Shown here: positions 17,500 to 57,002 of the stretch, piece by piece
Position numbering within the stretch: the stretch's first letter is position 1
Layout: each line of letters begins with the position of its first letter
DNA from: Lytechinus pictus
Lineage: Eukaryota
DNA length: 64,000 bases
Direction: 5' to 3'
Assembly: GCF_037042905.1 (NCBI RefSeq)
Contig: NC_087250.1
Span: 21,392,001 to 21,456,000, forward strand
The notes under the pieces: model-generated
The model's input: the letters and a program-made list of their open reading frames with translations, nothing else
What the model was told of the DNA's origin: nothing
Database searches by the model: none
Translations under genes and position numbers: made by a program

Positions 17500-18135
17500 G
17501 TTTTTTTTTATATGGCGTTTAGCGGCCATCTTTTTTTTATCTGAATGATCCTATATTGCAAAATTATTACCAGAAATGGAATCAACATATCAAATAACTC
17601 ACGAAAAGAGGTATTATTCATGATTCTTGGACAAAGGGTTCAAAAGTTTTTTTTTCAAAATGGCGTCATCTTGCGGCCATCTTGGATTTGACCTGAAGAT
17701 GACAATATATTGCAAAATAGATAGCGGAAAGAGATTCTACACACCCCAAAACCCCCTAAACAGAGGTATTACTCGTCATTCTGGGGCAAGGAGATCAAAA
17801 GTCAATTTTTCAAGAGGGCATCTGGCGGCCATCTTGGATTTGACCTGAAGATGACCTTATATTGCAAACATTATAAAAGAAATCGATTCTACATCCCCCT
17901 AAACCTCTAAAAGGAGTCTTTACTCATCATTTGGGGGCAAGTGGTTCAAAAGTTAAGTCTTTAAGATGGCATCTGGCGGCCATTTTGGATTTATACAAAT
18001 TAGCAAAATTACCCAAACGGCAACTTTGGGCAACCAAGCTGAATTTGGTCTAGGACCCCATAGGAACACGTTTCAAGAAAAAATCTTCATCGGAAAGAAC
18101 ATTTCTAGGTTGGTGTATTGAGCCTATGGGACTGT
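17500..18135. repeat. ~150-bp tandem repeat with GCGGCCATCTTGGATTT motif, probably transposon subterminal repeats
   Basis: Motif near 17522, 17671, 17824 and 17975. Confidence 0.65.
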
Positions 18136-18892
18136 CAAATCGACTAATACTTATATGAAAACCAAATGAGACAGTTAAGTAAATAATATTTCGATATTTG
18201 ATTATCTTTGCACTTTCTTCACAATCCATCTTGACGAAAGTCTGAATATTCTAATGAAATTGATTGAAGTCATAATTATTATAGTATATTTAAACATAAA
18301 GGGGGTATAAGTTTTATGATTGCTGACGGCATCGCCGTACGCGGTTAATTGGTAGATTTTTCCCAATAAAGTCCACTCAGACCAGCGTTTATTAAGTCTG
18401 AAGTTGTCAAACCGGTCGTTAAGCACGAGTCACATCGCTCTTACCATAGTAGCAACTACAATTTTGCACACGAAGTGCACGTCTAACGTTCCCGTCGTGG
18501 TGGCGAAAACCCGGGGCCCCCAGCTTTGAACGCCGGTGCCTTAACCACTAGACCACAGAGACGGGTTAGTGGATAGGGCGACCCCGATTCGATTGACTGT
18601 CAGAAAGACAGATTTTCGACACCATACCAATTGTAATTTCCTTTGTCGGGTGAAGGTGGGTTTTGAACAATGACAAGCCGCCATGCCTCAGCTGGATCAA
18701 AGCTATTGCTTTGATACAGTACACGTATGGGAGGAAAAGAGTTGCCAAAGATGTAATACATGTATAACTTCACACATTTGTATACTTTCTCCCATACGTG
18801 TACTGTATCAAAGCAATAGCTTTGATCCAGCTGAGGCATGGCGGCTTGTCATTGTTAAAACCCACCTTCACCCGACAAAGGAAATTACAATT

Positions 18893-20840
18893 CTCGCTAC
18901 CCCAAATAGCGATTTCGCCGAGATCCGGGAAAATCCCTGTAACGTGCATTGCATTATGGGATAGCTTTTTCGGTATTACAACTTCCTGTTCGGAAGTCCA
19001 ACGCACTGTTTTGCCATTTAGATCAACAGTGCCGTCATACACAACAACACAACGTAGCTTTCGCTCGGAAAGTTCGTGATCACAACCCTCTCTTTCACTA
19101 ACAGTTTTACAGCCTTTTCTGCTAAAGTCACTAATTCTGCCTGACGCTTTCCATCGCACGGTATTCATCTGTCAGTTAAGATTTTTTTAAGTTCCGAAAC
19201 TGATTTTTATCCATTTTGTGGTCGACGAAAAATTGAACGAAATGAATGCTGAATATATTTAGTGTCTAATTGAATACGATCATGATGTCAGGCCGGTCGC
19301 TAAATGCAAAATTTTAAGATATTCATTATTTGTTTGATTTTTTTATAACCAAATAAAAACATGAATAAAAATTATTCTCACGTGAAATATATTTTTTATT
19401 TTTATTTATAATTCAAATGGAATCAAAACTGACCAAATGTAATAAAAAGTATTATACTCTGTACATATTACGCTGATTGGCATCGATTTCAGCGTGGTGG
19501 AAAACTCAGTCCGGACCTTTCGTTTGAGGACGCGCACGCTTATTTACGACGTTAATTGATTTTGGAAGAGACTTTTTGGGCCCGTCATCATGGTCGTCCT
19601 GCAATGCAAATTGTGTGACATGAGATTTTTTTTTCGTTTCGCATCTGCGACGGAAACATTCAATATGCGTTTCGTGTGCAAAATTTTGGTTGCTACTATG
19701 GTAACAGCGATATATCTCATTGAGGACGACTTTCCAAAGCCACATTTGACTCCTCCTAGAGCTCGAGAGGCCGCCCGGGGGGCCCACTTCCATTGATTAG
19801 TGGATCCCAGGAGCGACCACGCGTAAAAGGGGACAGAGTGGGCAGGTACGTTACGTATAGGCCTATGTAACGTTATAAGGGTGTCAAAACGATGTTTAAA
19901 ATGCTGACAAAAAAGGGATATCCAATACTTGTAGGGTTTCACAAGCCAAATTCTTGTTAAGAGATGCATTTTCATAATCTGGAAAAGAATTACTTCCCAG
20001 CTTGTTTAGGGTATTTTTCGAAACCCCATGGTCGTGCCTGGTATCCACTCATTAATGGAAGTGGTCCCCCCGGAATTTGAATCTAATCCCCATTTCTGGG
20101 GGAAGTAAAACATAATGCCCATTACATCGTGTGCGAGAGGCATATCGTTTGTGTAGAAGGAATAAACAAAAGAAACAAAAGAAACAAAAAGAAACGAGTT
20201 CAAATGTATTACATAATGGTGTGCACATATCAACTCACGCGAAATGTTCGGCTGGAGAGGTTGATCTGACCCATGAAATCAATTGCCAGTGATACACCAA
20301 TAATCCACATTAAATGTAATATCGATTCGATGGACTGTAATGATCTATATCTAAGCCTTCATTCAGTAAGTTTTTCCTCACTCAATATGTACTCGATTTG
20401 TTTGAAAAACCACTTTCTTATCCATGTCATAATCTATTTTAGGTCTTAATTTCGAATATCTCAAACCATCAGTCGTAATATACATGCTATGTATGGTGCG
20501 AGTGTCGCAGAAAAGGATTTTGCACACGAAAAGCAGATCTGTAGGGCCTGTAACCCCCATGTAACACAAAGTTTAGCATTGATTGTAGAGCAGTTTTCTA
20601 CGTTTGATTCTATTGACTATAATGCACATTCAATCTTAAAAATCAAGTGTATGATTAAGCGTTAACTTTTGTGTTAGGCGACCCTAATATTAGCGTCCGT
20701 GAGGATTGCGAAAGGTCCCAAGTATCGCGAACCTCGCGCGAGCATGACTCTAAACCGGAAGTGGTGATGACGACCCGACGGAGTGAAAATTATCTCGTCT
20801 CGCGCATTATGAGATTTTTGTTCCTATTTGGGGTAGCGAG
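18893..20840. mobile_element. Non-autonomous DNA transposon, 17-bp TIR, AATT TSD (Sola1-like by TSD)
   Basis: AATT|CTCGCTACCCCAAATAG...CTATTTGGGGTAGCGAG|AATT. The empty site ACAATTGGT is visible in the sister unit at ~21248. Confidence 0.85.
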
Positions 20841-20910
20841 AATTGGTATGGTGTCGAAAATCTGTCTATCTGACGGTCAATCGGATCGGGGTCGCCCTAG
20901 CCACTAACCC

Positions 20911-20983
20911 GTCTCTGTGGTCTAGTGGTTAAGGCACCGGCGTTCAAAGCTGGGGGCTCGGGGCTCGATTCCCGGCAGTAACA
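20911..20983 (+). pseudogene. Degenerate tRNA-like (TCA) copy
   Basis: Lies 409 bp upstream of the intact copy. B box altered (GGCTCGATT) and 3' acceptor strand mismatched (CAGTAAC). Confidence 0.65.
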
Positions 20984-21319
20984 TTTTTCGGCATCATCAA
21001 TTTTTCCAAAAGGGTAGATAGCTCTGGGGAACCTTGATTTAAGCTACGCCTACCATTGTTCTCTTCATCCATTTCTTTCACACAATATTTAAATAAAAGA
21101 GCTGCCAAAGCTGTAGTACATGTATAACTTCACACATTTGTATACTTTCTCCCATACGTGTACTGTATCAAAGCAATAGCTTTGATCCAGCTGAGGCATG
21201 GAGGCTTGTCATTGTTCAAAACCCACCTTCACCCGACAAAGGAAATTACAATTGGTATGGTGTCGAAAATCTGTCTATCTGACGGTCAATCGGATCGGGG
21301 TCGCCCTAGCCACTAACCC

Positions 21320-21391
21320 GTCTCTGTGGTCTAGTGGTTAAGGCACCGGCGTTCAAAGCTGGGGGCCCGGGTTCGATTCCCGGCAGAGACA
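21320..21391 (+). tRNA. 72-nt tRNA-like gene with centred anticodon TCA (opal-suppressor-like), inside a repeat unit
   Basis: Acceptor stem GTCTCTG/CAGAGAC, D stem GTCT/AGGC with loop AGTGGTTA, anticodon stem CCGGC/GCTGG with loop GTTCAAA, 4-nt variable loop, T arm CCGGG-TTCGATT-CCCGG, discriminator A, then TTTTTT. Function unproven. Confidence 0.7.
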
Positions 21392-21544
21392 TTTTTTCGG
21401 CATCACCAATTTTTCCAAAAGGGTAGATAGCTCTGGGGAACCTTAATTTAAGCTACGCCTACCATTGTTCTCTTCATCCATTTCTTTCACACAATATTTA
21501 AATAAAAGAGTTGCCAAAGCTGTAGTACATGTATAACTTCACAC

Positions 21545-21580
<36 letters not shown>

Positions 21581-21583
<3 letters not shown>

Positions 21584-24500
21584 GCAATGGAGATACACGC
21601 CTAAAAGTTGACCCCGAGTCAACCGACTTGAAGTCAATTTACTCAGAGTCATGTTCAGGAGTTAGAATTTTTTTGAGCTCGGAGAGTGTATACTACGGGC
21701 GGCAATGGAGTGCTTTCACGATGGGAAACACAATTGGGGGTGTGATCGCTTATTAGAACAGCCACTACGTACATTCATAGACCTGCTGTGTGTTCTGCGG
21801 AGCGAGAGCTGATTTTGTGAAATAGTGTAGTCTTATTCCAGGAACGAATAAATAACTATTAAAAAAAAGAGTAAAATTTAGATATTTTTTTTGTAGTTGA
21901 ATAATATGGTTCCAAGATTAATCACCAAAATATTTGTTCATTCAATTCAATTTGGATTACATCCAATTAAGTGTACTGAGGCCTAGATTAGTAGGTTTTC
22001 CAGGGCTGCAGTTGGGGGGGGGGGCAGTTGATACTTGAATTAACAATAAAAATGAAAACAAAGGTAGATCGACTTGATTTCGATGTATACATAACATATC
22101 ATAGATCCTGTCCATGTCTCATTTTTTTTTGGGGGGGGGTGCAGTTGATATATTAATATAGCATAATACTCAGTATTATGATTATATTTCTTGATATAAT
22201 GGACTAAAAGTGATGGAATGTTTTTGTACGGTGACTGGAGGTCACTGTCTGTAGTATTCACTTAACTTGATGTTGTTATGCCTCACTTCATGGATTTTCA
22301 TGTTGAGATAACATTACCTCATCCCATACCCTGTCTATGACTTTTTTCCAGCGGGGGGGGGGGGGGATTGATATGATGATTTTGCATAAAACTGTTAATA
22401 AAACAACCTCAGTCGTGTGATTATATTCCTTCACGTAACTGACTAAAAGTGATGACATGTTTTTTTATTAGATGACGTGAGGGTTTTGTGGGTAGTATTA
22501 ACTTTACTTGAAGTTTTGGGTCACTTTATGGTTTTCATGTGTGTACATTGTCTAGAGACATTTAATTTATCCCGGCATGTCCGACATCCACGTATCATAC
22601 CAACTCATACTATTTTTTCCCATTTATTCATTTATTTGAATATTTATTTTTTATTTGGGGGGGGGGTTGATATTTAAAGACGCACATTCCTCGCCAGTAG
22701 TTCTGCTGCATGGAGACTTAAAGCAGCAATGCCCACGCGATTTCGTACGAATGGGACTGTCTGTTGTTATGACTCTCTTTGTGGATTTTCAGGACTAGAT
22801 AACATTACCTTATATCCCTTAATATAATCAACTCAAAGAGAATATATGTTTTAGTTTGCTGACTTGAGGTCAATAATGGTGGTATTCATCTTACCTGAAG
22901 TTGTTATGACTCTATTTGTGGATTTTCAGGAATAGATAACATTACCTTATATCCCTTAATATAATCGACTCAAAGTGATAATATAATTTACTTAGCTGAC
23001 TTGAGGTCAATAATGGTGGTATCCATCTTACCTGAAGTTGTTATGACTCTCTTTGTGGATTTTCAGGAATAGATAACATTACGTTCTTCCCATATCCTGT
23101 CCATATCTTAATATAATATTTTATTCATTTTTTTTTTGGGGGGGTGGAGCAGTTGGTATCTTACTTTAGCGTGAAACTGACCTAAAATATATAAAGTATC
23201 TAAAGTAAGATATCCCTCATTAAAATCGACTCAAAGTGATGATATGCTTTAGTTTGCTGACTTGAGGGCAATAATGGTGGTATTCATCTTACCTGAAGTT
23301 GTTATGACTCTATTTGTGGATTTTCAGGAATAGATAACATTACCTTATATCCCTTAATATAATCGACTCAAAGTGATGATATATTTTACTTAGCTGACTT
23401 GAGGTCAATAATGGTGGTATTCATCTTACCTGAAGTTGTTATGACTCTCTTTGTGGATTTTCAGGAATAGATGACATTACGCTATTCCCATATCCTGTCC
23501 ATATCTTAATATAATAGTTTTTTTTTTTTTTTTGGGGGGGGGGGGGAGTGGAGCAGTTGGTATCTTACTTTAGCGTGAAACTGACCTAAAATATATGAAG
23601 TATATAAAGTAATATATCCCTCATTAAAATCGACTCAAAGTGATGATATGTTTTAGTTTGCTGACTTCAGGTCAATAATGGTGGTATTCATCTTACCTCA
23701 AGTTGTTATGACTCTCTTTGTGGATTTTTTAGCGTTGCGGGGTGATATGTATCGAATCTGACATAGTTACCATATAGATCTAGATCTAGTATTTTAATTA
23801 TGTTGAAAAAAGTACAATTCAATGTCAATAGATCTACCAAGAATTGCCTCATCCGGCCTAGATCTACATTTTCAACTTGACAAATCAAATCAAATCAAAT
23901 TAATCGACATTTTCATACATGCGCGCGCACACACACACACACACATACATACACACACAAACCTTTTGAAGAAAATATGGGGGATGGGCGGGGGGGGATG
24001 GGGGAACAGCAGCGCGCCCCACAAAGACACAAACCATACCAGAAGTAGGCCTACGCCACTGTCAGTACACTTTATTGGATGTCAACATTGACGAATCTTG
24101 GAAAATAAGCGTCGAACCATAATATCACACCACAGTTTGAACAACAAAAACAAAACCAAACAATTTTAGAGCATTGTTATAATTATTATTTTACTTATTT
24201 ATTTATTCCTGGTATAAGACTTCACAATTACTCAAAATCGGCTCTCGCTCCGCAGAGTACGCAGTAGGTCTATGCACGTACGTATAGTGGCTGTTCTAAT
24301 AAGCGACCACAACCCCACATTAATCGCTCTGCGTGGAACATTACAATGACAAATCTAGACTCATTATTTTGTTATTAAGGCATTATAATTAATACAGGAA
24401 ACGCAAATAGAGATGTATAACCAAGCAATAACTCAAACCAGTTGAACAGTTATCAAGAAAACAGACAACATGTTAGAAAAATCAACTGAAAGAAACTGCA

Positions 24501-24639
24501 ATCGTGATATAGCACTCCGTTGCCGCCCGCAGTACACTCTCTGAGCTCGAAAAAAATCTAAGTCCTGAACATGACTCTGAGTAAATTGACTTCAAGTCGG
24601 TTGACTCAGGGTCAACTTTCAGGTGTGTATCTCCATTGC

Positions 24640-24642
<3 letters not shown>
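21581..24642. mobile_element. 3.06 kb non-autonomous TIR element inserted in (TA)n, superfamily unassigned
   Basis: ~135-bp TIRs starting GCAGCAATGGAGATACAC, a second inverted block at ~21735-21818 versus ~24233-24318, and no coding capacity. Confidence 0.85.
22760..23730. repeat. Internal tandem array of ~135-bp and ~260-bp units (higher-order period ~400 bp)
   Basis: GAAGTTGTTATGACTCT(C/A)TTTGTGGATTTTCAGG recurs near 22764, 22897, 23035, 23295, 23433 and 23700. More diverged copies lie at ~21950-22700. Confidence 0.85.
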
Positions 24643-24676
<34 letters not shown>

Positions 24677-24679
24677 GTA

Positions 24680-25145
24680 TATTGTAAAGAAATGGATGAA
24701 GAGAACAATGGTAGGCGTAGCTTAAATCAAGGTTCCCCAGAGCTATCTACCCTTTGGAAAAATTGGTGATGCCGAAACCACTAGACCACAGAGGTATGAT
24801 GTACGGTATACGTGTACTGTATCAAAGCAATAGCTTTGATCCAGCTGAGGCATGGCGGCTTGTCATTGTTCAAAACCCACCTTCACCCGACGAAGGAAAT
24901 TATAATTGGTATAGTGTCGAAAATATGTCTATCTGACAGTCAATCGAATCGGGGTCGCCCTAGCCACTAACCCGTCTCTGTGGTCTAGTGGCTAAGGCAC
25001 CGGCGTTCAAAGCTGGGGCCCCGGGTTCGATTTCCGGCAGAGACATTTTTTCGGCATCACCAATTTTTCCAAAGGGCAGATAGCTCTGGGGAACTTTGAT
25101 TTAAGCTACGCCTACCATTGTTCTCTTCATTCATTTATTTACAAT
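24680..25145. mobile_element. Further insertion of the tRNA-carrying element, with an inverted ~97-bp end copy, flanked by (TA)n
   Basis: 24680-24778 is the reverse complement of ~25049-25145. A short reverse-complement tRNA fragment (CCACTAGACCACAGAG) follows the left arm. TA microsatellite on both sides. Confidence 0.8.
24974..25045 (+). tRNA. Second intact tRNA-like (TCA) copy
   Basis: Same fold with three substitutions (D loop, variable loop, one G-T pair in the T stem). Followed by TTTTTT. Confidence 0.62.
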
Positions 25146-26115
25146 ATATATATATATATATTTATTGCGCAGAGTAGGCCTAGATGTTTTACACATCGTT
25201 TCGGCCTCGTAATCATTAAAGGGGGAACAAACATGCACGATACGAGGCTGTGATAATGGGCAGATGCATAAAAGTAGCAATTGCTGGCAAGCAATTGCTT
25301 CAAGCGCAAGTAAACGATCATGTTTCAGCAAATTACCGCTTGGTGTGAAACTACCTTGTTTCTTTTTGATAATTCTATATATTTAACATTTGATTTGCAC
25401 TTATTATTTAAATGTAATGAATTATTATGTAAGATTTATTATGTTTATTGTCATGTTCCAAATCTAGACTGCATTGTTCATGTTAAATTTTTACAATGTG
25501 TTGTCTATCATTTTGCACGGCATGTAAACAAGAAGAATGTCCAATTATGGACAATAAATAAATACTTATACTTAGTAAACATGTACATGTAGGCTACGGT
25601 ATATCTTGGTGTTCTCTCTTAAACATGATTGAAAAACGAGAACGCCCTGATCAAGCAAAAGCTGAAGCTATTCTGACCGTGCTTGAAAAAAACCCAAGCA
25701 AGTGCTTAAACACGCAAGCGAGATGTTTGCTTTTAGCAATAGATTAATCGTCAAGGAGATGCTAGCAGTCAGCGATTTCTTGAACTTACTGGCAAAAGCA
25801 TATGCTCGCTCATGTTTATGCATACGAAACAAATCAAAAGCAAGGCAAAAGCCTAGAAAAAGCAATTGCTACTTTTTATGCATCTGACCCAATGTATCGT
25901 AATTTTCTTTTTTCTTTTTTTTTTCTTTTGCCTTCAGTGCATGTTGTCACGGTTCGGCGTTTCATCATATCGTAATTTCGTTATTGGCCTAACAATGTTT
26001 TTTTACGAATTTAGTTGCGTTGTAGCGTGAGGTCTTTTTGAATGAAATCAAAGGAAAGCTATTTTTCCTTCAATTTATCAGAAGCAAAATGAAACTGCAC
26101 CCTTCTTACTTCTCG

Positions 26116-45009: not shown

Positions 45010-46729
45010 TATTATTTCAACTCTGCCTTCTTTTTCTTATTTTCTTCACAAAGAGATAATAGAATGTCTTTCGTTTTGCAATGTTGCTTATTTTTTGCAT
45101 TTCAAATTCAAATTCAAATTCATTTACAACGTGAAACAAGTATGGACTGCATTTTTTTCTGTGGTGAGAAGTTTTGGTAATTGGTTAGCTAATAGAAATA
45201 AGACAGGTGGGAACTCATGCACTACATGCCCGAAAAAATAAAACGAAAAAGGAATTATCAATGTCTTATATAATGTAACACAATGAATGGCATAATCCTT
45301 TTCATGATTAAAAATAATTATTAATCATGTCATTCATCGGGGGTATGTAGTTTACGAAAACAACATCACATGTCCCGAAGATACCATAGTTGTTGTTTCT
45401 CACTGGAAATGACAATCGATAGAAAAGATGATAACGAGTGGTAATATTCTATTTGTTTCATATAATATTGTATTTACATACTATATTTAAACGAATGTTT
45501 ATTTACCGATGGCCATTTGTAGTTCGTGCCTATAATGTAGATTTTCTATGATCATCACACGATGTATCAATTTACGTTTTTATGGGGGATTGTAGGCCGC
45601 CACGGGCTATAATTTTTTGCGTGTGTGTGTGCGTTTATATTGTTTAAAGTCATCTTTTGAATGTACATGCTTGACATCGTAGATGGCCGAATAAAAGCCA
45701 TCATGAGACAACGATCGTTATAACAATCTCACGCAGAAAATACAATAAGTATAGCATCACCAATCAAGCACCCTTAAGTTCGCTGTTCGTTACAACATAA
45801 TTATGCAATTTGCAAGTCATAATTGTGATCGAGTTATGACTTCGATTTTCCTCCCTCAGGTTAAGTATATAACGCTTGATAGTTACGTTTTACTGGTATA
45901 GGATCGGTTTAATGTTAACTTGCATGAACGGAATATTTATATGTGGGGCTATGGACCGACTACGATAAGAAATATTCTGACTTTTATCCCTTTCCCTTCC
46001 CTTCATTTCGCTTTCCCCCTTTGACCTTTTCCTTACATTGAATATATAGCGAATTATATGTTAAAACGCGATAACCCCACATTCAAGGCTTATACATGTA
46101 CCATACTGGGTGCTTTTTGTTTCTTAATAAAAAAATGCTTCAATTCCTCATTGTCGTTGGAGTATGCTAAGAATTAAAGGTAAAATTGATTAACGCGCTT
46201 TGCCTGCTTTCAATTCAATTTATTTCACATTTGCATAAGACGACAATACATATAATTACAGTGATAAAAGGCATATAATACATAAGATCACACAAAATAC
46301 CGAGAATACAAATGTGTGGAAACTAACAAAGGCCAACGGCATATCAAAGGCAAATCCCAAACTGTTGCAAACGGAAAAAGGGCTTTAAAACAGAACTTAC
46401 CTAGGCAAAGACACCAAAAACAACACAACGGCTTTTTTTGTAAAAAAAATCTTATAAATTGTTAGGAAACAATTTACGAATTCATACGAAATTCTATGTA
46501 TTTTCGTTGAAAAGAGTTGAGTGAATTATGAATCAGAGAAGAGCTGCTACTACTACACATTAGATTTCAAATTGCGTTAATTTAATCTTTCACTGTTGGA
46601 TTGTCTTCCGATTTATCCTGACACGTACATGCTTTACCTATGGCACGCCCATAGGGAAACAATTATATATATATTTCACTTGAAAAAAATATGTTTTTCT
46701 TCTACTAAACCATTTCACTCAAAGAAATT

Positions 46730-47200
46730 TATATTTCACTTTTCAAAAAAATATATTTCACTTTTATAAAAAAAATATATTTCACTTTTCAAAAAAATAT
46801 ATTTCACTTTTCAAAAAAAATATATTTCACTTTTCAAAAAAATGTATTTCACTTTTCAAAAAAATATATTTCACTTTTCAAAAAAAAATATATTTCACTT
46901 TTCCAAAAAATATATTTCACTTTTCAAAAAAAAAATATTTCACTTTTCAAAAAAATATATTTCACTTTTCAAAAAAATATATTTCACTTTTCAAAAAAAT
47001 ATATTTCACTTTTCAAAAAAATATATTTCACTTTTCAAAAAAATATATATTTCACTTTTCAAAAAAATATATTTCACTTTTCGAAAAAAATATATTTCAC
47101 TTTTCAAAAAAATATATTTCACTTTTCAAAAAAGTATATTTCACTTTTCAAAAAATAATATATTTCACTTTTCCAAAAAAAATATGTTTCACTTTTGAAA
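46730..47200 (+). repeat. ~22-bp minisatellite (ATATATTTCACTTTTCAAAAAA)n, left arm
   Basis: About 20 directly visible units with variable A-run length. Confidence 0.95.
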
Positions 47201-47304
47201 AGAATCATTTCACTTGTTACATTTTAATTTTGAAAGAAAACAAATCCTTTCACTTTTGTTGGATATCACATGCGGCTGCCGTATTAGACCGTACGTAAAA
47301 TTCA

Positions 47305-50832: not shown

Positions 50833-51284
50833 AGATAAATATGCAGATAGATAGAAATTAAGACAGATATACAGACATTTAAACAGCCGGATAAATCATT
50901 AGATAGATAGATAGATTGAATGATAAATAAACAGATATAGACATATTAAAATAAATAAATAGATATTAGATAGATAAAGAGACAGACAGATAGATAGATA
51001 GACAGACATATTTAAACAGATAATTGTTAGATAGATAGAAAAATAAATAGTTCGAGAGATAGATAGATAAATAGACAGACAGATAGATGGATAGATAGAT
51101 AGATTTAAACAGATAGATATATATTAGGCAGAGAGATAGATAGATATATCATGTAGGTAGATAGATAGATAGATAGATGAATTTTACGTACGGTCTAATA
51201 CGGCAGCCGCATGTGATATCCAACAAAAGTGAAAGGATTTGTTTTCTTTCAAAATTAAAATGTAACAAGTGAAATGATTCTTTT

Positions 51285-51815
51285 CAAAAGTGAAACATAT
51301 TTTTTTTGGAAAAGTGAAATATATTATTTTTTAAAAAGTGAAATATATTTTTTTGAAAAGTGAAATATATTTTTTTGAAAAGTGAAATATATTTTTTTGA
51401 AAAGTGAAATATATTTTTTTTGAAAAGTGAAATATATTTTTTTGAAAAGTGAAATATGTATTTTTTTGAAAAGTGAAATATATTTTTTTGAAAAGTGAAA
51501 TATATTTTTTTGAAAAGTGAAATATATTTTTTTGAAAAGTGAAATATATTTTTTTGAAAAGTGAAATATATTTTTTTGAAAAGTGAAATATATTTTTTTG
51601 AAAAGTGAAATATATTTTTTTTGAAAAGTGAAATATATTTTTTGGAAAAGTGAAATATATTTTTTTTTGAAAAGTGAAATATATTTTTTTGAAAAGTGAA
51701 ATATATTTTTTTGAAAAGTGAAATATATTTTTTTTGAAAAGTGAAATATATTTTTTTGAAAAGTGAAATATATTTTTTTTATAAAAGTGAAATATATTTT
51801 TTTGAAAAGTGAAAT
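51285..51815 (-). repeat. Same ~22-bp minisatellite inverted, right arm
   Basis: (GAAAAGTGAAATATATTTTTTT)n, roughly 60 bp longer than the left array. Confidence 0.95.
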
Positions 51816-51989
51816 ATAAATTTCTTTGAGTGAAATGGTTTAGTAGAAGAGAAACATATTTTTTTCAAGTGAAATATATATTTAATTGATTCCCTATAAG
51901 CGTGCCATATTTACCATCAATAACGATACTAGTGTGTCAATAATGTGCCATTGAAATTATATAGTGTAAAGGCAGAGCATGTGACTTAC

Positions 51990-54682: not shown

Positions 54683-55133
54683 CTATTAAGAAGATGAAAG
54701 AATAGTTGAAATAAGCAGCATAAGGAGGAGATACAATTGAAACAGTTTTATTTTTTGATGGTAACTGAAGAATCAACGCGTATTATTTAACCAGAATTGA
54801 GTATCGTACCATTTATTTATTATTTCTCATATGACTCTGACCTTCAATAAGCAGAAAAGTTAGTAAAAAAGACCCACACTACCCGGCTTTTATTGTTAAA
54901 ACTCTGATTTTGTTACTGTTTGATCATAGTGTATGGTTCATCCATTTATGTATTCGTCTTTATCTGTTATGCTACTGCTGATTCGTAACGTTTAATTTTA
55001 AATGATTACATCGGTCAACACTGCGCTATTTGGTATAACATAAGTAGGCCTATACTGTATGATATATGAAGTATAAGCTTTATTGACTGTATGGACTTAT
55101 TTCTCTAGAAATCATTATCTGACATTAGATTAC

Positions 55134-56713
55134 CCTCTCTTTCAGCTCACGTGGAAGATTTCGCATCCCAACAACAGTATACACTGTTGGTGACTTTAAG
55201 ATCATACGTCGTGACGTCACACATCTTCGTACCAATGATGACACATTCCCATCGTTGACCACAGACTCTGATGAACAATCTAGGAGAATACGATATCGCT
55301 CACTCTCAGATAAATAAGTATTTGTAAGGACGCTCTCCATTATTCTAATGCAGAGATTGCTCTTCGTACCAGAAGCAAATCGAATAAGATTTTCATATTC
55401 TCCAATGCTTGTATTTATATCTCGCAGTACTCGGTCTAACTTACTGAACTTCAACAGGAAAAGAAAGCGGTTTGTTTCATCAGCAAGATACTTTCCTGCT
55501 GCATGTTCTTGAGCAAGTTTGTGATAAAACTCAATAGTAGTTATGGTAGTCGAAAATGCTTTGTCAAGTTGTGGAAGGCGTCTGGTTGAAACAACAGTCT
55601 TTGAGACTATTCCTAGGGCGCATGCCATATCAAGAATAGAGGGAACTCTCTGAAAATCACAAGACGAGAAAACTAACTTCTTAGCATCATTGAGCAGACC
55701 AGTGAGAGCAATTTCTCCCAGTTTCAGTATTATTTTGTTTAGTTGTTTGGGAGTTTTTATCAAGCCAGGTGTCCGGGCATTTGCATGGAGCATTAAGAAT
55801 ACGTTAACTTGGTCGAGTAATGCTGTTTGAGTTGTAATGTCACGCTGAGGTTGGTCTTCAGACCACAAGTGACAGACCATGAGGCAAAATAGCGGAGTTT
55901 TTACGAGTTCCTCAATTAGGGGTTGCTCATCAAGGTAAACTTTCAGATCATCCGCTTTCATAGGTTTCTGAACAGAAGTAAAGAACCTGTCAATGTAATC
56001 GCGTGCGTTCTCTCGCGAGAATCCTTCGATCTCCATCTTTGTGTACACCCTTGGTAGATCCCCTTGACTAAAAATGTCTTCTAGGTGAGGTCGTGTTGTT
56101 ACAATAACTCGACATTGTGGAAACATTTCCCTGCGGAGAATTCTCATGATATTGCTTGAGGAAGAGATACCCGCATACTCATCGAGACCATCTAGTACAA
56201 TATTACAGATTCCCTGATGCTGTCTGATGAAACTTTCTAGCCCCTCTGGCGTCAGATCGTCAACATCACTCAGGAGTTGTGATATGATGGCTTCTCCGAT
56301 CGATGTACTGTGACTTGTGTTTCGAAACTTGACTACGAACAGAAGTGGCAAGTCTTCTAATCCTGACCCTTCCTCTCTGTGAACCCAGTCGTGCGCCATC
56401 TTAGCGACAGCTGTCGTCTTTCCTCGTCCAGCCGGAGCCGAAATAAGGATTCGTGATGGAAGACTCCCGTTTACTTTTGCTGAAAATATTTTTCCAACAG
56501 AGCCTTGAAGTATTTGTTTTTCCTTAGTATTTATTCTTTGAGCGTCCTTCTTTACCATGGTAACAACGGTGTGCATATCTTCAAACTCTGCATAATCATC
56601 TTTGTCCCACGGTTTCATTTGAATTTTACATAGCTGATTCGAATATTTGTCCTCCAAGATTGTGCGACATTTTCGAACAGTCAGAGATTCCGATATCTTC
56701 TCACTGTAGACAT
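55134..56713 (-). CDS. NLR gene, NACHT NTPase exon
   Basis: Walker A ILISAPAGRGKTT, Walker B IVLDGLDEY, sensor-1 VIVTTRP, KTPLFCLMVC, winged-helix FYHKLAQEHAAGKYL. Acceptor ttccAG|AT (phase 1) and donor AGG|GTAATC (phase 0). Confidence 0.95.
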
Positions 56714-57002
56714 CTGGAATAATAAACAAGGGACCAAAATGAGTTCAACCACTTGCTATCTGACTCCTGGAGAAACATATGAACATAACATAGGGAGGGG
56801 ACAATTGCTGACTCAAGATAAGAAATGTCGTTTGTCGTTTGTAATGATTACGAAGATTTGTTAATACTTAGCGTGCTATAGTCTACTTCATCAGAAGTCA
56901 CGAAAATTGCGCCATTTTGTAAAGGTAATGTATTTTAGAACACCGGCTGTTTTGCCAAAGATGTAAAAAAAAAATCCGGCTATGGCCAAAATCTGGCTCG
57001 TT

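Follow-up and report, generated by a model that had tools for sequence, protein, structure and literature searches.

What is a complete tRNA cloverleaf with the UGA-reading anticodon UCA doing inside a repeat of a sea urchin genome? The question is raised by a stretch of 64,000 nucleotides from Lytechinus pictus (NCBI RefSeq assembly GCF_037042905.1, contig NC_087250.1, positions 21,392,001 to 21,456,000 of the forward strand), here called the window, by whose numbering positions are given unless a contig is named. An earlier note, made from the sequence alone, had seen such a cloverleaf at 21320-21391 as part of a mobile repeat, and had proposed that the fold is under selection, either as an element-borne opal suppressor tRNA or as a tRNA mimic. 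The analysis reported here leads to another answer: the repeat is probably a non-autonomous retroelement of the Penelope-like element (PLE) type, which has also grown into a transcribed satellite and which carries a chimeric, tRNA gene-like cassette. For transposon biology, this would link a complete tRNA gene-like cassette to PLE-type mobilisation.

The complete cloverleaf with its UCA anticodon and adjoining T6 run is recovered by both ARAGORN and the Rfam tRNA model RF00005, and the following features belong to it:

21320..21391, plus strand: tRNA-like cloverleaf of 72 nt with anticodon UCA, G32 and discriminator A (ARAGORN, Rfam RF00005)
21353-21355, plus strand: anticodon UCA, tRNA positions 34-36
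21392..21397, plus strand: T6 run resembling an RNA polymerase III (Pol III) terminator, directly 3′ of the discriminator (from the sequence)
21410-21414, plus strand: second run, T5, 13 nt beyond T6 (from the sequence)

RF00005 gives 60.9 bits to 21320-21391 (gathering score 29), covers model positions 1-71 and flags no non-canonical pair, and ARAGORN places a tRNA at the same positions of the plus strand, with tca at position 34; its label “SeC” is due to the anticodon alone. The stems are GUCUCUG/CAGAGAC in the acceptor, GUCU/AGGC (one U.G) in the D arm, CCGGC/GCUGG (one G.U) in the anticodon arm and CCGGG/CCCGG in the T arm. U33, the D-loop GG and TTCGA are all present in the Rfam alignment. 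The anticodon loop reads G32-U33-U34-C35-A36-A37-A38, with G at position 32, which is a near-universal pyrimidine in tRNAs. As the earlier note had held, this is not a selenocysteine tRNA (tRNA-Sec): the module is 72 nt long, its variable region is only 4 nt and the general tRNA model fits it over its whole length, whereas a whole-genome search finds genuine tRNA-Sec of 86 nt at two other loci (76.9 bits on RF01852).

The cloverleaf does not stand by itself in the genome. Copies were counted by pattern search in the assembly of 812 Mb and 368 contigs, where the 41-nt tRNA core has 2,338 matches at ≤3 mismatches and the reversed control pattern has none, a match far beyond chance. The 41-mers of the upstream and downstream flanks have 2,062 and 1,964 matches, respectively, the downstream count being handicapped by a difference between the window copy and the family consensus; the tRNA segment is about as numerous as the rest of the ~406-nt unit. 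Furthermore, both acceptor ends, the upstream CCC of the family and the downstream TTTT are intact in 1,618 copies, and the upstream context differs in a single copy only. Rather than a free-standing gene, the cloverleaf is therefore a segment of the ~406-nt unit, and the earlier ascription to a mobile repeat holds. An exact two-anchor pattern matches 59 copies only, owing to subfamily variants in the anchors and not to rarity. For annotation, it follows that tRNA finders will call well over a thousand “tRNA-SeC” or suppressor genes here, which should be masked as repeat-derived. A diverged tRNA-like variant is found in three copies with ~4.2-kb spacing (G000:C1:2838310, 2842532, 2846744); its D stem, variable region and T stem are changed while TCA is kept, and the recurrence suggests that the repeat is embedded there in a larger tandem duplication.

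In the window, the unit and its relatives are laid out as follows:

21146..21553, plus strand: full repeat unit of 408-409 nt, 406 nt in arrays (self-BLAST shift of 409)
20841..21144, plus strand: 5′-truncated upstream unit in head-to-tail tandem, 96.7% identical to 21250-21553, holding a decayed tRNA-like sequence at 20911-20983
21250..21310, plus strand: degenerate inverted partial copy of the tRNA 3′ half and trailer, without the anticodon arm, antisense to 21358-21411
21505..21553, plus strand: optional 3′ tail of 49 nt (alternative insertion ends at 21504 and 21553/4)
21548..21580, no strand: (TA)n microsatellite adjoining the 3′ end of the element (from the sequence)
24808..25147, plus strand: third copy (unit 21154-21504, 94% identity) with a tRNA-like sequence at 24974-25045
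24671..24794, minus strand: inverted partial copy, internally deleted, directly upstream of the third copy (inverted-repeat pairs, BLAST, sequence)
18508..18736, minus strand: inverted truncated copy (unit 21146-21373, 96.9% identity) with tRNA positions 1-54 only
18735..18892, plus strand: partial unit (corresponding to 21095-21253, 96.9% identity), head-to-head with the inverted copy at 18508-18736

The tRNA module is internal, at positions 175-246 of the 408 of the unit, and the segment 20841-21553 comprises 1.75 units in tandem, ending in (TA)n. The third insertion, 24644-25162, is bracketed by (TA)n, at 24644-24670 in front and 25146-25162 behind. The anticodon loop is indeed identical in all four window copies, as the earlier note had reported; one of the four, however, is incomplete, and two of the other three are damaged. 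The copy at 20911-20983 scores 39.7 bits on RF00005, with four pairs of its acceptor and T stems flagged as non-canonical and only T5 behind it, and that at 24974-25045 scores 49.5 bits, with three substitutions weakening stems. The minus-strand copy, running from 18562 down to ~18509, stops past the 5′ strand of the T stem and is thus an incomplete tRNA.

Insertion anatomy was resolved in 20 arrays, taken from 30 loci of contig C1 that were chosen for a perfect core among the matches listed; five duplicate overlapping loci and five complex loci were left out. The insertions range from 0.3 to 2.3 units and start at 17 different unit positions, none of which is 21320, whereas the 3′ ends fall at 21504 (13/20) or at 21553/4 (7/20), 49 nt apart. 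Both end types read CACACA(A/TT)TAT and run into (TA)n, which lies directly downstream in every one of the 20 arrays; directly upstream there is (TA)n in 11, an inverted element copy in seven and other sequence in two. The third copy of the window and the head-to-head pair at 18508-18892 have this same layout. The repeat therefore shares with PLEs the partial head-to-tail tandems with 5′ truncation, the inverted upstream copy, and the microsatellite bias with an optional tail. As described in the excerpted sections of PMC8557442, PLE insertions are strongly 5′-truncated, form partial tandems (pseudo-long terminal repeats, pLTRs) with an inverted 5′-truncated copy adjoining upstream, and have a tail of 30-40 bp at one end; among PLEs, Naiads show a (TA)n target bias, and non-autonomous derivatives occur as multicopy head-to-tail insertions. 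In vitro, according to an excerpt of another paper, PLE reverse transcriptase initiates internally on RNA, which accounts for the optional tail, and both DNA strands are cut at AT-rich sites (PMC11167929).

PLEs of the same genome also run into (TA)n. The GIY-YIG domain has 59 matches in the genome, of which 30 were inspected, each as a 3.2-kb locus. In the open reading frames (ORFs) of two loci, L123 and L146, RVT_1 precedes a GIY-YIG domain at the C terminus (Pfam), and a third, L144, has GIY-YIG together with RVT_1 at 27.6 bits, just below the Pfam cut-off of 29.6. A run of (TA)6 or longer is found downstream in 24 of the 30 loci. In one PLE family with reverse transcriptase and GIY-YIG domains (L120-L127), there are two alternative (TA)n ends 56 nt apart (5/8 and 3/8 loci), and the distal one, “...TCACAC(TA)n”, is like the terminus of the repeat itself. 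Members of this family often occur as inverted pairs a few kb apart, e.g., C19:10762669(-) and 10767337(+).

Like satellite DNA, the repeat also forms long homogeneous head-to-tail arrays. The longest array, on contig C2, has 44 units with a period of 406 nt, and 23 units extracted from it comprise only three distinct sequences.

RNA from the repeat is abundant. Reads were mapped to 21146-21560 from two ribo-depleted paired libraries of one study on the same species, and 88,403 of 8.71 M records (1.0%) in run X21 and 73,479 of 8.25 M (0.9%) in run X22 fell on the unit. At ~1% of reads, the repeat RNA would rank among the most abundant non-ribosomal RNAs in that sample, which is worth knowing for analysts of such ribo-depleted urchin data. 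The depth is 18,000-44,000 with the first mate on the minus strand as against 3-39 with the first mate on the plus strand. It is unbroken at T6 (43.8k across 21384-21397 and 43.3k after), and no pile-up of molecule starts or ends is seen anywhere in the reads of X21 and X22, including 21320 and 21391. Since the reads pass T6 at full depth, the abundant RNA is not a product of Pol III terminating at the cassette. Junction reads from unit end to unit start number at least 16,500, against a local depth of 20-22k, and each of the best-supported loose ends listed for X21 and X22, beyond which come 1,134 more, is a variant of the adjacent unit, none being (TA)n. The RNA is a long multimeric array transcript or consists of circles, two forms between which the tandem genomic units make the reads blind. 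In an unstranded complementary DNA (cDNA) run of a second organism, the repeat amounts to 0.01% of records, with flanking sequence attached. A contig of 72 nt corresponding exactly to 21320-21391 (three differences, depth 9) is record 3 of run X1; it may have arisen as an artefact where the graph branches, or it may hint at a molecule of tRNA length.

What shape such an RNA would take can be judged from folding. The plus strand of the unit has a minimum free energy of -140.8 kcal/mol, compared with -100.4 ± 5.3 for shuffles (z = -7.6), and the minus strand gives z = -3.6. In the fold predicted for the plus strand, the unit forms a long rod, close to whose tip the anticodon hairpin lies. In this rod, 21241-21319 pairs with the D region, T arm and 3′ acceptor strand of the tRNA and with the trailer including T6, since 21250-21310 repeats 21358-21411 in inverted and degenerate form (44 of 61 columns, score 29; shuffles 16.1 ± 2.0, maximum 24 of 300). 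This antisense copy looks like a fossil of the inverted-copy habit of the element. When the cloverleaf is enforced, the energy is -117.9 kcal/mol, i.e., 23 kcal/mol costlier than the rod. Several variable sites of the second organism would break the predicted rod, and an excess of G.U over A.C mismatches within it (12 vs 1) was set aside as a bias made by the folding program. The rod is thus a predicted, thermodynamic expectation for the long RNA, unproven as a functional fold.

The module itself can be traced to two host tRNAs. The D arm (GGTCTAGTGGTTA) and the variable region with the T arm (GGCCCGGGTTCGATTCCCGG) are identical to those of the genome's own tRNA-Glu(UUC) and tRNA-Glu(CUC) genes, so the A and B boxes are those of host tRNA-Glu, and the resemblance noticed earlier in these arms proves to be identity. 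Over the whole length, 54-57 of 75-76 aligned columns agree with tRNA-Glu, and the D loop is longer by one A. The 5′ strand of the acceptor with positions 8-10 (GTCTCTGTGG), on the other hand, is identical to the genome's tRNA-Asn(GTT), from which the 3′ strand differs by one base and the discriminator. The earlier note had taken an acceptor stem that differs from tRNA-Glu and is nevertheless fully paired as a sign of selection; its near identity to the tRNA-Asn acceptor stem explains the pairing, and compensatory evolution need not be invoked. The anticodon arm is rebuilt one base out of the Glu register, which leaves TTC off-centre, as had been remarked before, and presents UCA instead. By these identities, the module is a Glu/Asn chimera with a remodelled anticodon arm, in which UCA is presented by happenstance. 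Among the genomic tRNA-Glu genes, those for UUC lie head-to-tail at ~380-390-nt spacing (G000:C16:2595334-2598840), resembling the 406-nt period of the repeat, and those for CUC form a 24-kb cluster (C17:25857114-25881053).

Is the fold maintained by selection? The test sample consisted of 79 copies anchored on a perfect 41-mer upstream of the tRNA, a choice blind to the state of the tRNA. In 73 of them the tRNA is uninterrupted, and in 32 it has the consensus sequence, the copies being ~1-3% from consensus. In the anticodon loop, G32 is changed once, U33 three times, U34 once and C35 once. Among the 42 copies of contig C1 listed, which were anchored on the tRNA ends, 40 have TCA, one TCC and one TCT; four copies of one cluster carry U33A, and one carries A37T. 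In no genomic copy is a pair altered on both sides, either of the cloverleaf or of the rod. Transitions at paired sites that are compatible with pairing number 59 against 39 that break it (p=0.054), and the copies are too young for a verdict on the rod; a contrast between substitutions at paired and at unpaired positions was set aside as distorted by the ragged 3′ end and the fixed anchor. Variable sites in the reads of the first organism (1/72 in the tRNA vs 15/336 in the flanks, p=0.33) and shared-variant columns among genomic copies (5/72 vs 21/201, p=0.49) do not set the tRNA apart. Individual copies decay near the neutral rate, with the anticodon positions changed at the expected rate, and UCA is uniform because the copies are young. 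The claim that the fold is under selection is therefore not borne out, the likeness of the copies being one of youth.

The origin and decay of the module bear directly on the suggestion of an opal suppressor, according to which each copy would be a Pol III gene for a charged tRNA(UCA) that reads UGA, e.g., in the ORF of a retroelement. The cloverleaf is complete, its A and B boxes are those of genuine tRNA-Glu, T6 follows immediately, and the ends and TTTT are intact in 1,618 copies; the 72-nt contig of run X1 equals 21320-21391, although it is only a hint. In-frame UGA is found in some PLEs (clam and spider Naiads), for which the authors invoke the selenocysteine insertion sequence (SECIS) and selenocysteine (PMC8557442, in excerpt). 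However, the module has G32 in place of a pyrimidine, its Asn-like acceptor, Glu-like arms and novel anticodon arm would hardly provide a coherent synthetase identity set, and its anticodon and stems change at about the neutral rate with no compensatory changes. Moreover, a set of ~1,600 active suppressor genes should be highly deleterious, three PLE ORFs that were inspected have no UGA in the 600-602 codons examined, throughout which they are open, and genuine tRNA-Sec genes exist separately. With no positive evidence for it, and with some 1,600 G32-bearing copies of a chimera that seems to have no coherent identity set, a working suppressor is implausible and its probability very small. A tRNA mimic that serves the element has a better chance, if still a minor one, whether it acts as a Pol III promoter or TFIIIC site that opens arrays or yields a small non-decoding RNA, or as an RNase P/Z signal by which multimeric transcripts would be cut into units, as hammerheads do in retrozymes. 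Compared with its flanks, the module shows somewhat higher conservation across subfamilies and across two organisms, and the entire Pol III cassette is kept in ~1,600 copies; the tandem units and abundant single-strand RNA are retrozyme-like, yet there is no hammerhead; and small-RNA-gene cassettes in Cassandra and Helenus repeats offer a precedent (PMC10886601, in excerpt). The conservation signals are marginal, however (p ~0.04 each), in the long RNA the sequestering rod is predicted to be favoured over the cloverleaf by 23 kcal/mol, and both the 5′ and 3′ ends of insertions lie away from the tRNA borders. The RNA does not terminate at T6 or T5, nor do ends gather at 21320 or 21391. The promoter and processing roles offered in the earlier note find no support in the abundant RNA, which runs through the tRNA and T6 with no end pile-up at the borders, while a small RNA may be made besides.

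A bolder view, to which a somewhat smaller chance is given than to the mimic, makes the repeat an equivalent of animal retrozymes that does without a hammerhead: a PLE system aimed at (TA)n would spread a highly structured RNA of ~406 nt, ~1% of the non-ribosomal RNA and maybe circular, and every unit would have a complete tRNA cassette together with an antisense half that pairs with it. What keeps the cassette in place would then be its recruitment of TFIIIC/Pol III as DNA, or of RNase P/Z, La or exportin as RNA, and the recruited machinery would serve the expression, processing or trafficking of the element. At the other extreme, the repeat might be a plain satellite or segmental repeat with a captured tRNA pseudogene, moved by recombination at fragile (TA)n with no RNA intermediate, its transcripts being by-products. 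The 44-unit array of near-identical units, the TA microhomology junctions at both ends and the lack of a partner element among the PLE loci compared all agree with this. But it does not sit well with the short insertions that are scattered in their thousands over all large contigs and have two precise 3′ ends, 5′ truncation of graded extent and inverted 5′ copies. Fixed 3′ ends, graded 5′ truncation and inverted copies are, according to the excerpted text of PMC8557442, products of PLE target-primed reverse transcription. The same end features are seen in bona fide PLEs of this genome, and the RNA is single-stranded in the orientation needed by a template that ends at the fixed 3′ end. A plain satellite is accordingly improbable, though less so than the suppressor. 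Other mobile elements were also considered: a Helitron or another DNA transposon was ruled out by the absence of terminal inverted repeats, the graded 5′ ends and the strand-specific RNA, and a short interspersed element (SINE) mobilised by a (TA)n-specific long interspersed element (LINE) was judged less likely than a PLE on the tandem and inverted architecture.

With the repeat taken as a non-autonomous PLE-type element, the following course may be proposed. Arrays would be transcribed into long sense-strand multimers by a polymerase insensitive to T6 (probably RNA polymerase II), and PLE reverse transcriptase would copy this template from an internal site into nicked (TA)n, which would give rise to insertions of 0.3-2.3 units as well as to inverted copies. 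Pairing with the upstream antisense partial copy would keep the tRNA sequence of the long RNA in the rod rather than in a cloverleaf. The tRNA module would then be a legacy, a Pol III gene-like cassette rather than a working opal-suppressor tRNA, possibly still bound by TFIIIC/Pol III or yielding a small non-decoding RNA.

Several points weigh against this interpretation. Compared by BLAST with the 30 GIY-YIG loci, the unit finds only nearby insertions of the repeat (L138, L142, L144) and chance matches of ≤17 nt, and the longest feature that the repeat has in common with any PLE among them is a terminal motif of 6-7 nt; with no partner PLE matched, it is from insertion anatomy alone that PLE mobilisation is deduced. 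Canonical PLE pLTRs and retrozymes are characterised by a hammerhead ribozyme, and no hammerhead family of Rfam is found in 18300-25400 of the window at E≤5, nor any at gathering score in five PLE loci or in array L110. Tandem arrays could also grow by unequal exchange, with no retrotransposition. As for the RNA, its assignment to the plus strand, which is the sense of the tRNA and of the 3′ end, follows the usual library convention and not a calibration on known genes; the evidence comes from two runs of one study and one low-level unstranded run, and all are long-RNA libraries, in which a tRNA-sized product is invisible. Finally, the module may be more than a relic. Private substitutions, those present in one or two of the 79 copies, amount to 0.81% in the tRNA and 1.14% in the flanks (p=0.045), or 0.74% and 1.13% at non-CpG sites (p=0.025), and in the reads of the second organism, sites differing in ≥10% of reads are 1/72 in the tRNA and 28/336 in the flanks (p=0.041), the lone tRNA variant, A>G at 21387, keeping a U.G pair. 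Some constraint on the module in active lineages is thus possible, and a view of it as a pure relic may be too dismissive.

Compared with known systems, the repeat is like non-autonomous PLEs and animal non-LTR (long terminal repeat) retrozymes in its short non-coding head-to-tail units, dispersed partial tandems, 5′ truncation, inverted upstream copies, microsatellite targets and very abundant single-strand RNA, as far as these are described in the excerpts used (PMC8557442; bioRxiv 10.64898/2026.07.22.740005). It differs from them in the complete tRNA gene-like cassette, the lack of a detected hammerhead and the lack of a sequence link to an autonomous PLE. With tRNA-derived SINEs it has in common tRNA-related A and B boxes, thousands of copies, a simple-repeat 3′ junction and 5′ truncation. 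Its tRNA part, however, is internal and not a 5′ head that drives the whole element, the 3′ acceptor strand is kept and followed by T6 and T5, and the repeat is multimeric, often with inverted partners; because T6 and T5 come right after the module, Pol III could not make a full-length template, unlike in SINEs. The nearest concept found in the literature is that of TRIMp3 (Cassandra, Helenus, Ajax), where a small-RNA-gene cassette, 5S or tRNA-like, lies in the termini of a non-autonomous retroelement, and whose authors doubt the tRNA function of the tRNA-like part (PMC10886601, in excerpt). Those are LTR derivatives with a primer binding site (PBS), a polypurine tract (PPT) and 4-5-bp target duplications, whereas the urchin repeat is PLE-type with (TA)n. 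With tRNA-Sec and natural opal suppressors the module shares only the UCA anticodon: unlike tRNA-Sec, it has 72 nt, a short variable region and 7/5 acceptor/T geometry, and while natural opal suppressors are single-gene variants of a normal isoacceptor, the urchin copies are chimeric and number in the thousands. Like mascRNA and menRNA, it is a tRNA-like fold within a long abundant non-coding transcript, but the mascRNA-menRNA model RF01684 gives just 20.8-22.4 bits (gathering score 42.5), and no read ends lie at the tRNA borders. Full-text literature searches, leaving Repbase and Dfam outside, brought up neither a PLE-type or retrozyme-like element with a tRNA cassette nor any account of the urchin repeat, and the family may already be catalogued under another name. 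The polymerase, the circularity of the RNA and the role of the tRNA module are all addressable in an established embryo model.

Other repeats lie around the tRNA-bearing copies. A 143-nt inverted repeat (21548-21690 vs 24533-24675, 94% complementary) begins inside the (TA)n tracts and flanks 2.8 kb of sequence on both sides; either a different element may have gone into the same microsatellite, or the whole may be a single large inverted structure of PLE type. The stretch from the second tRNA-bearing copy to the third contains a ~137-nt tandem repeat at 22675-23750 (families D1-D3), accompanied by the T-run/G-run motifs TTTTTTTTGGGGGGGG (D11) at 22105, 22632, 23113 and 23509. Just upstream of the first inverted copy, a tandem repeat with a period of ~152 nt occupies 17589-17992 (families D9, D12). 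Farther along the window, very AT-rich (24-26% GC), strongly skewed tandem repeats at 46684-47298 (plus strand) and 51284-51864 (minus strand) have KKYISLFKK-like periodic peptide frames and are probably an inverted satellite rather than genes. A frame of 539 codons at 55125-56744 (minus strand) encodes a NACHT/NLR protein that is 100% identical over 92% of its length to an NLRC5-like protein of Lytechinus pictus and belongs to a large urchin family (150 protein matches).

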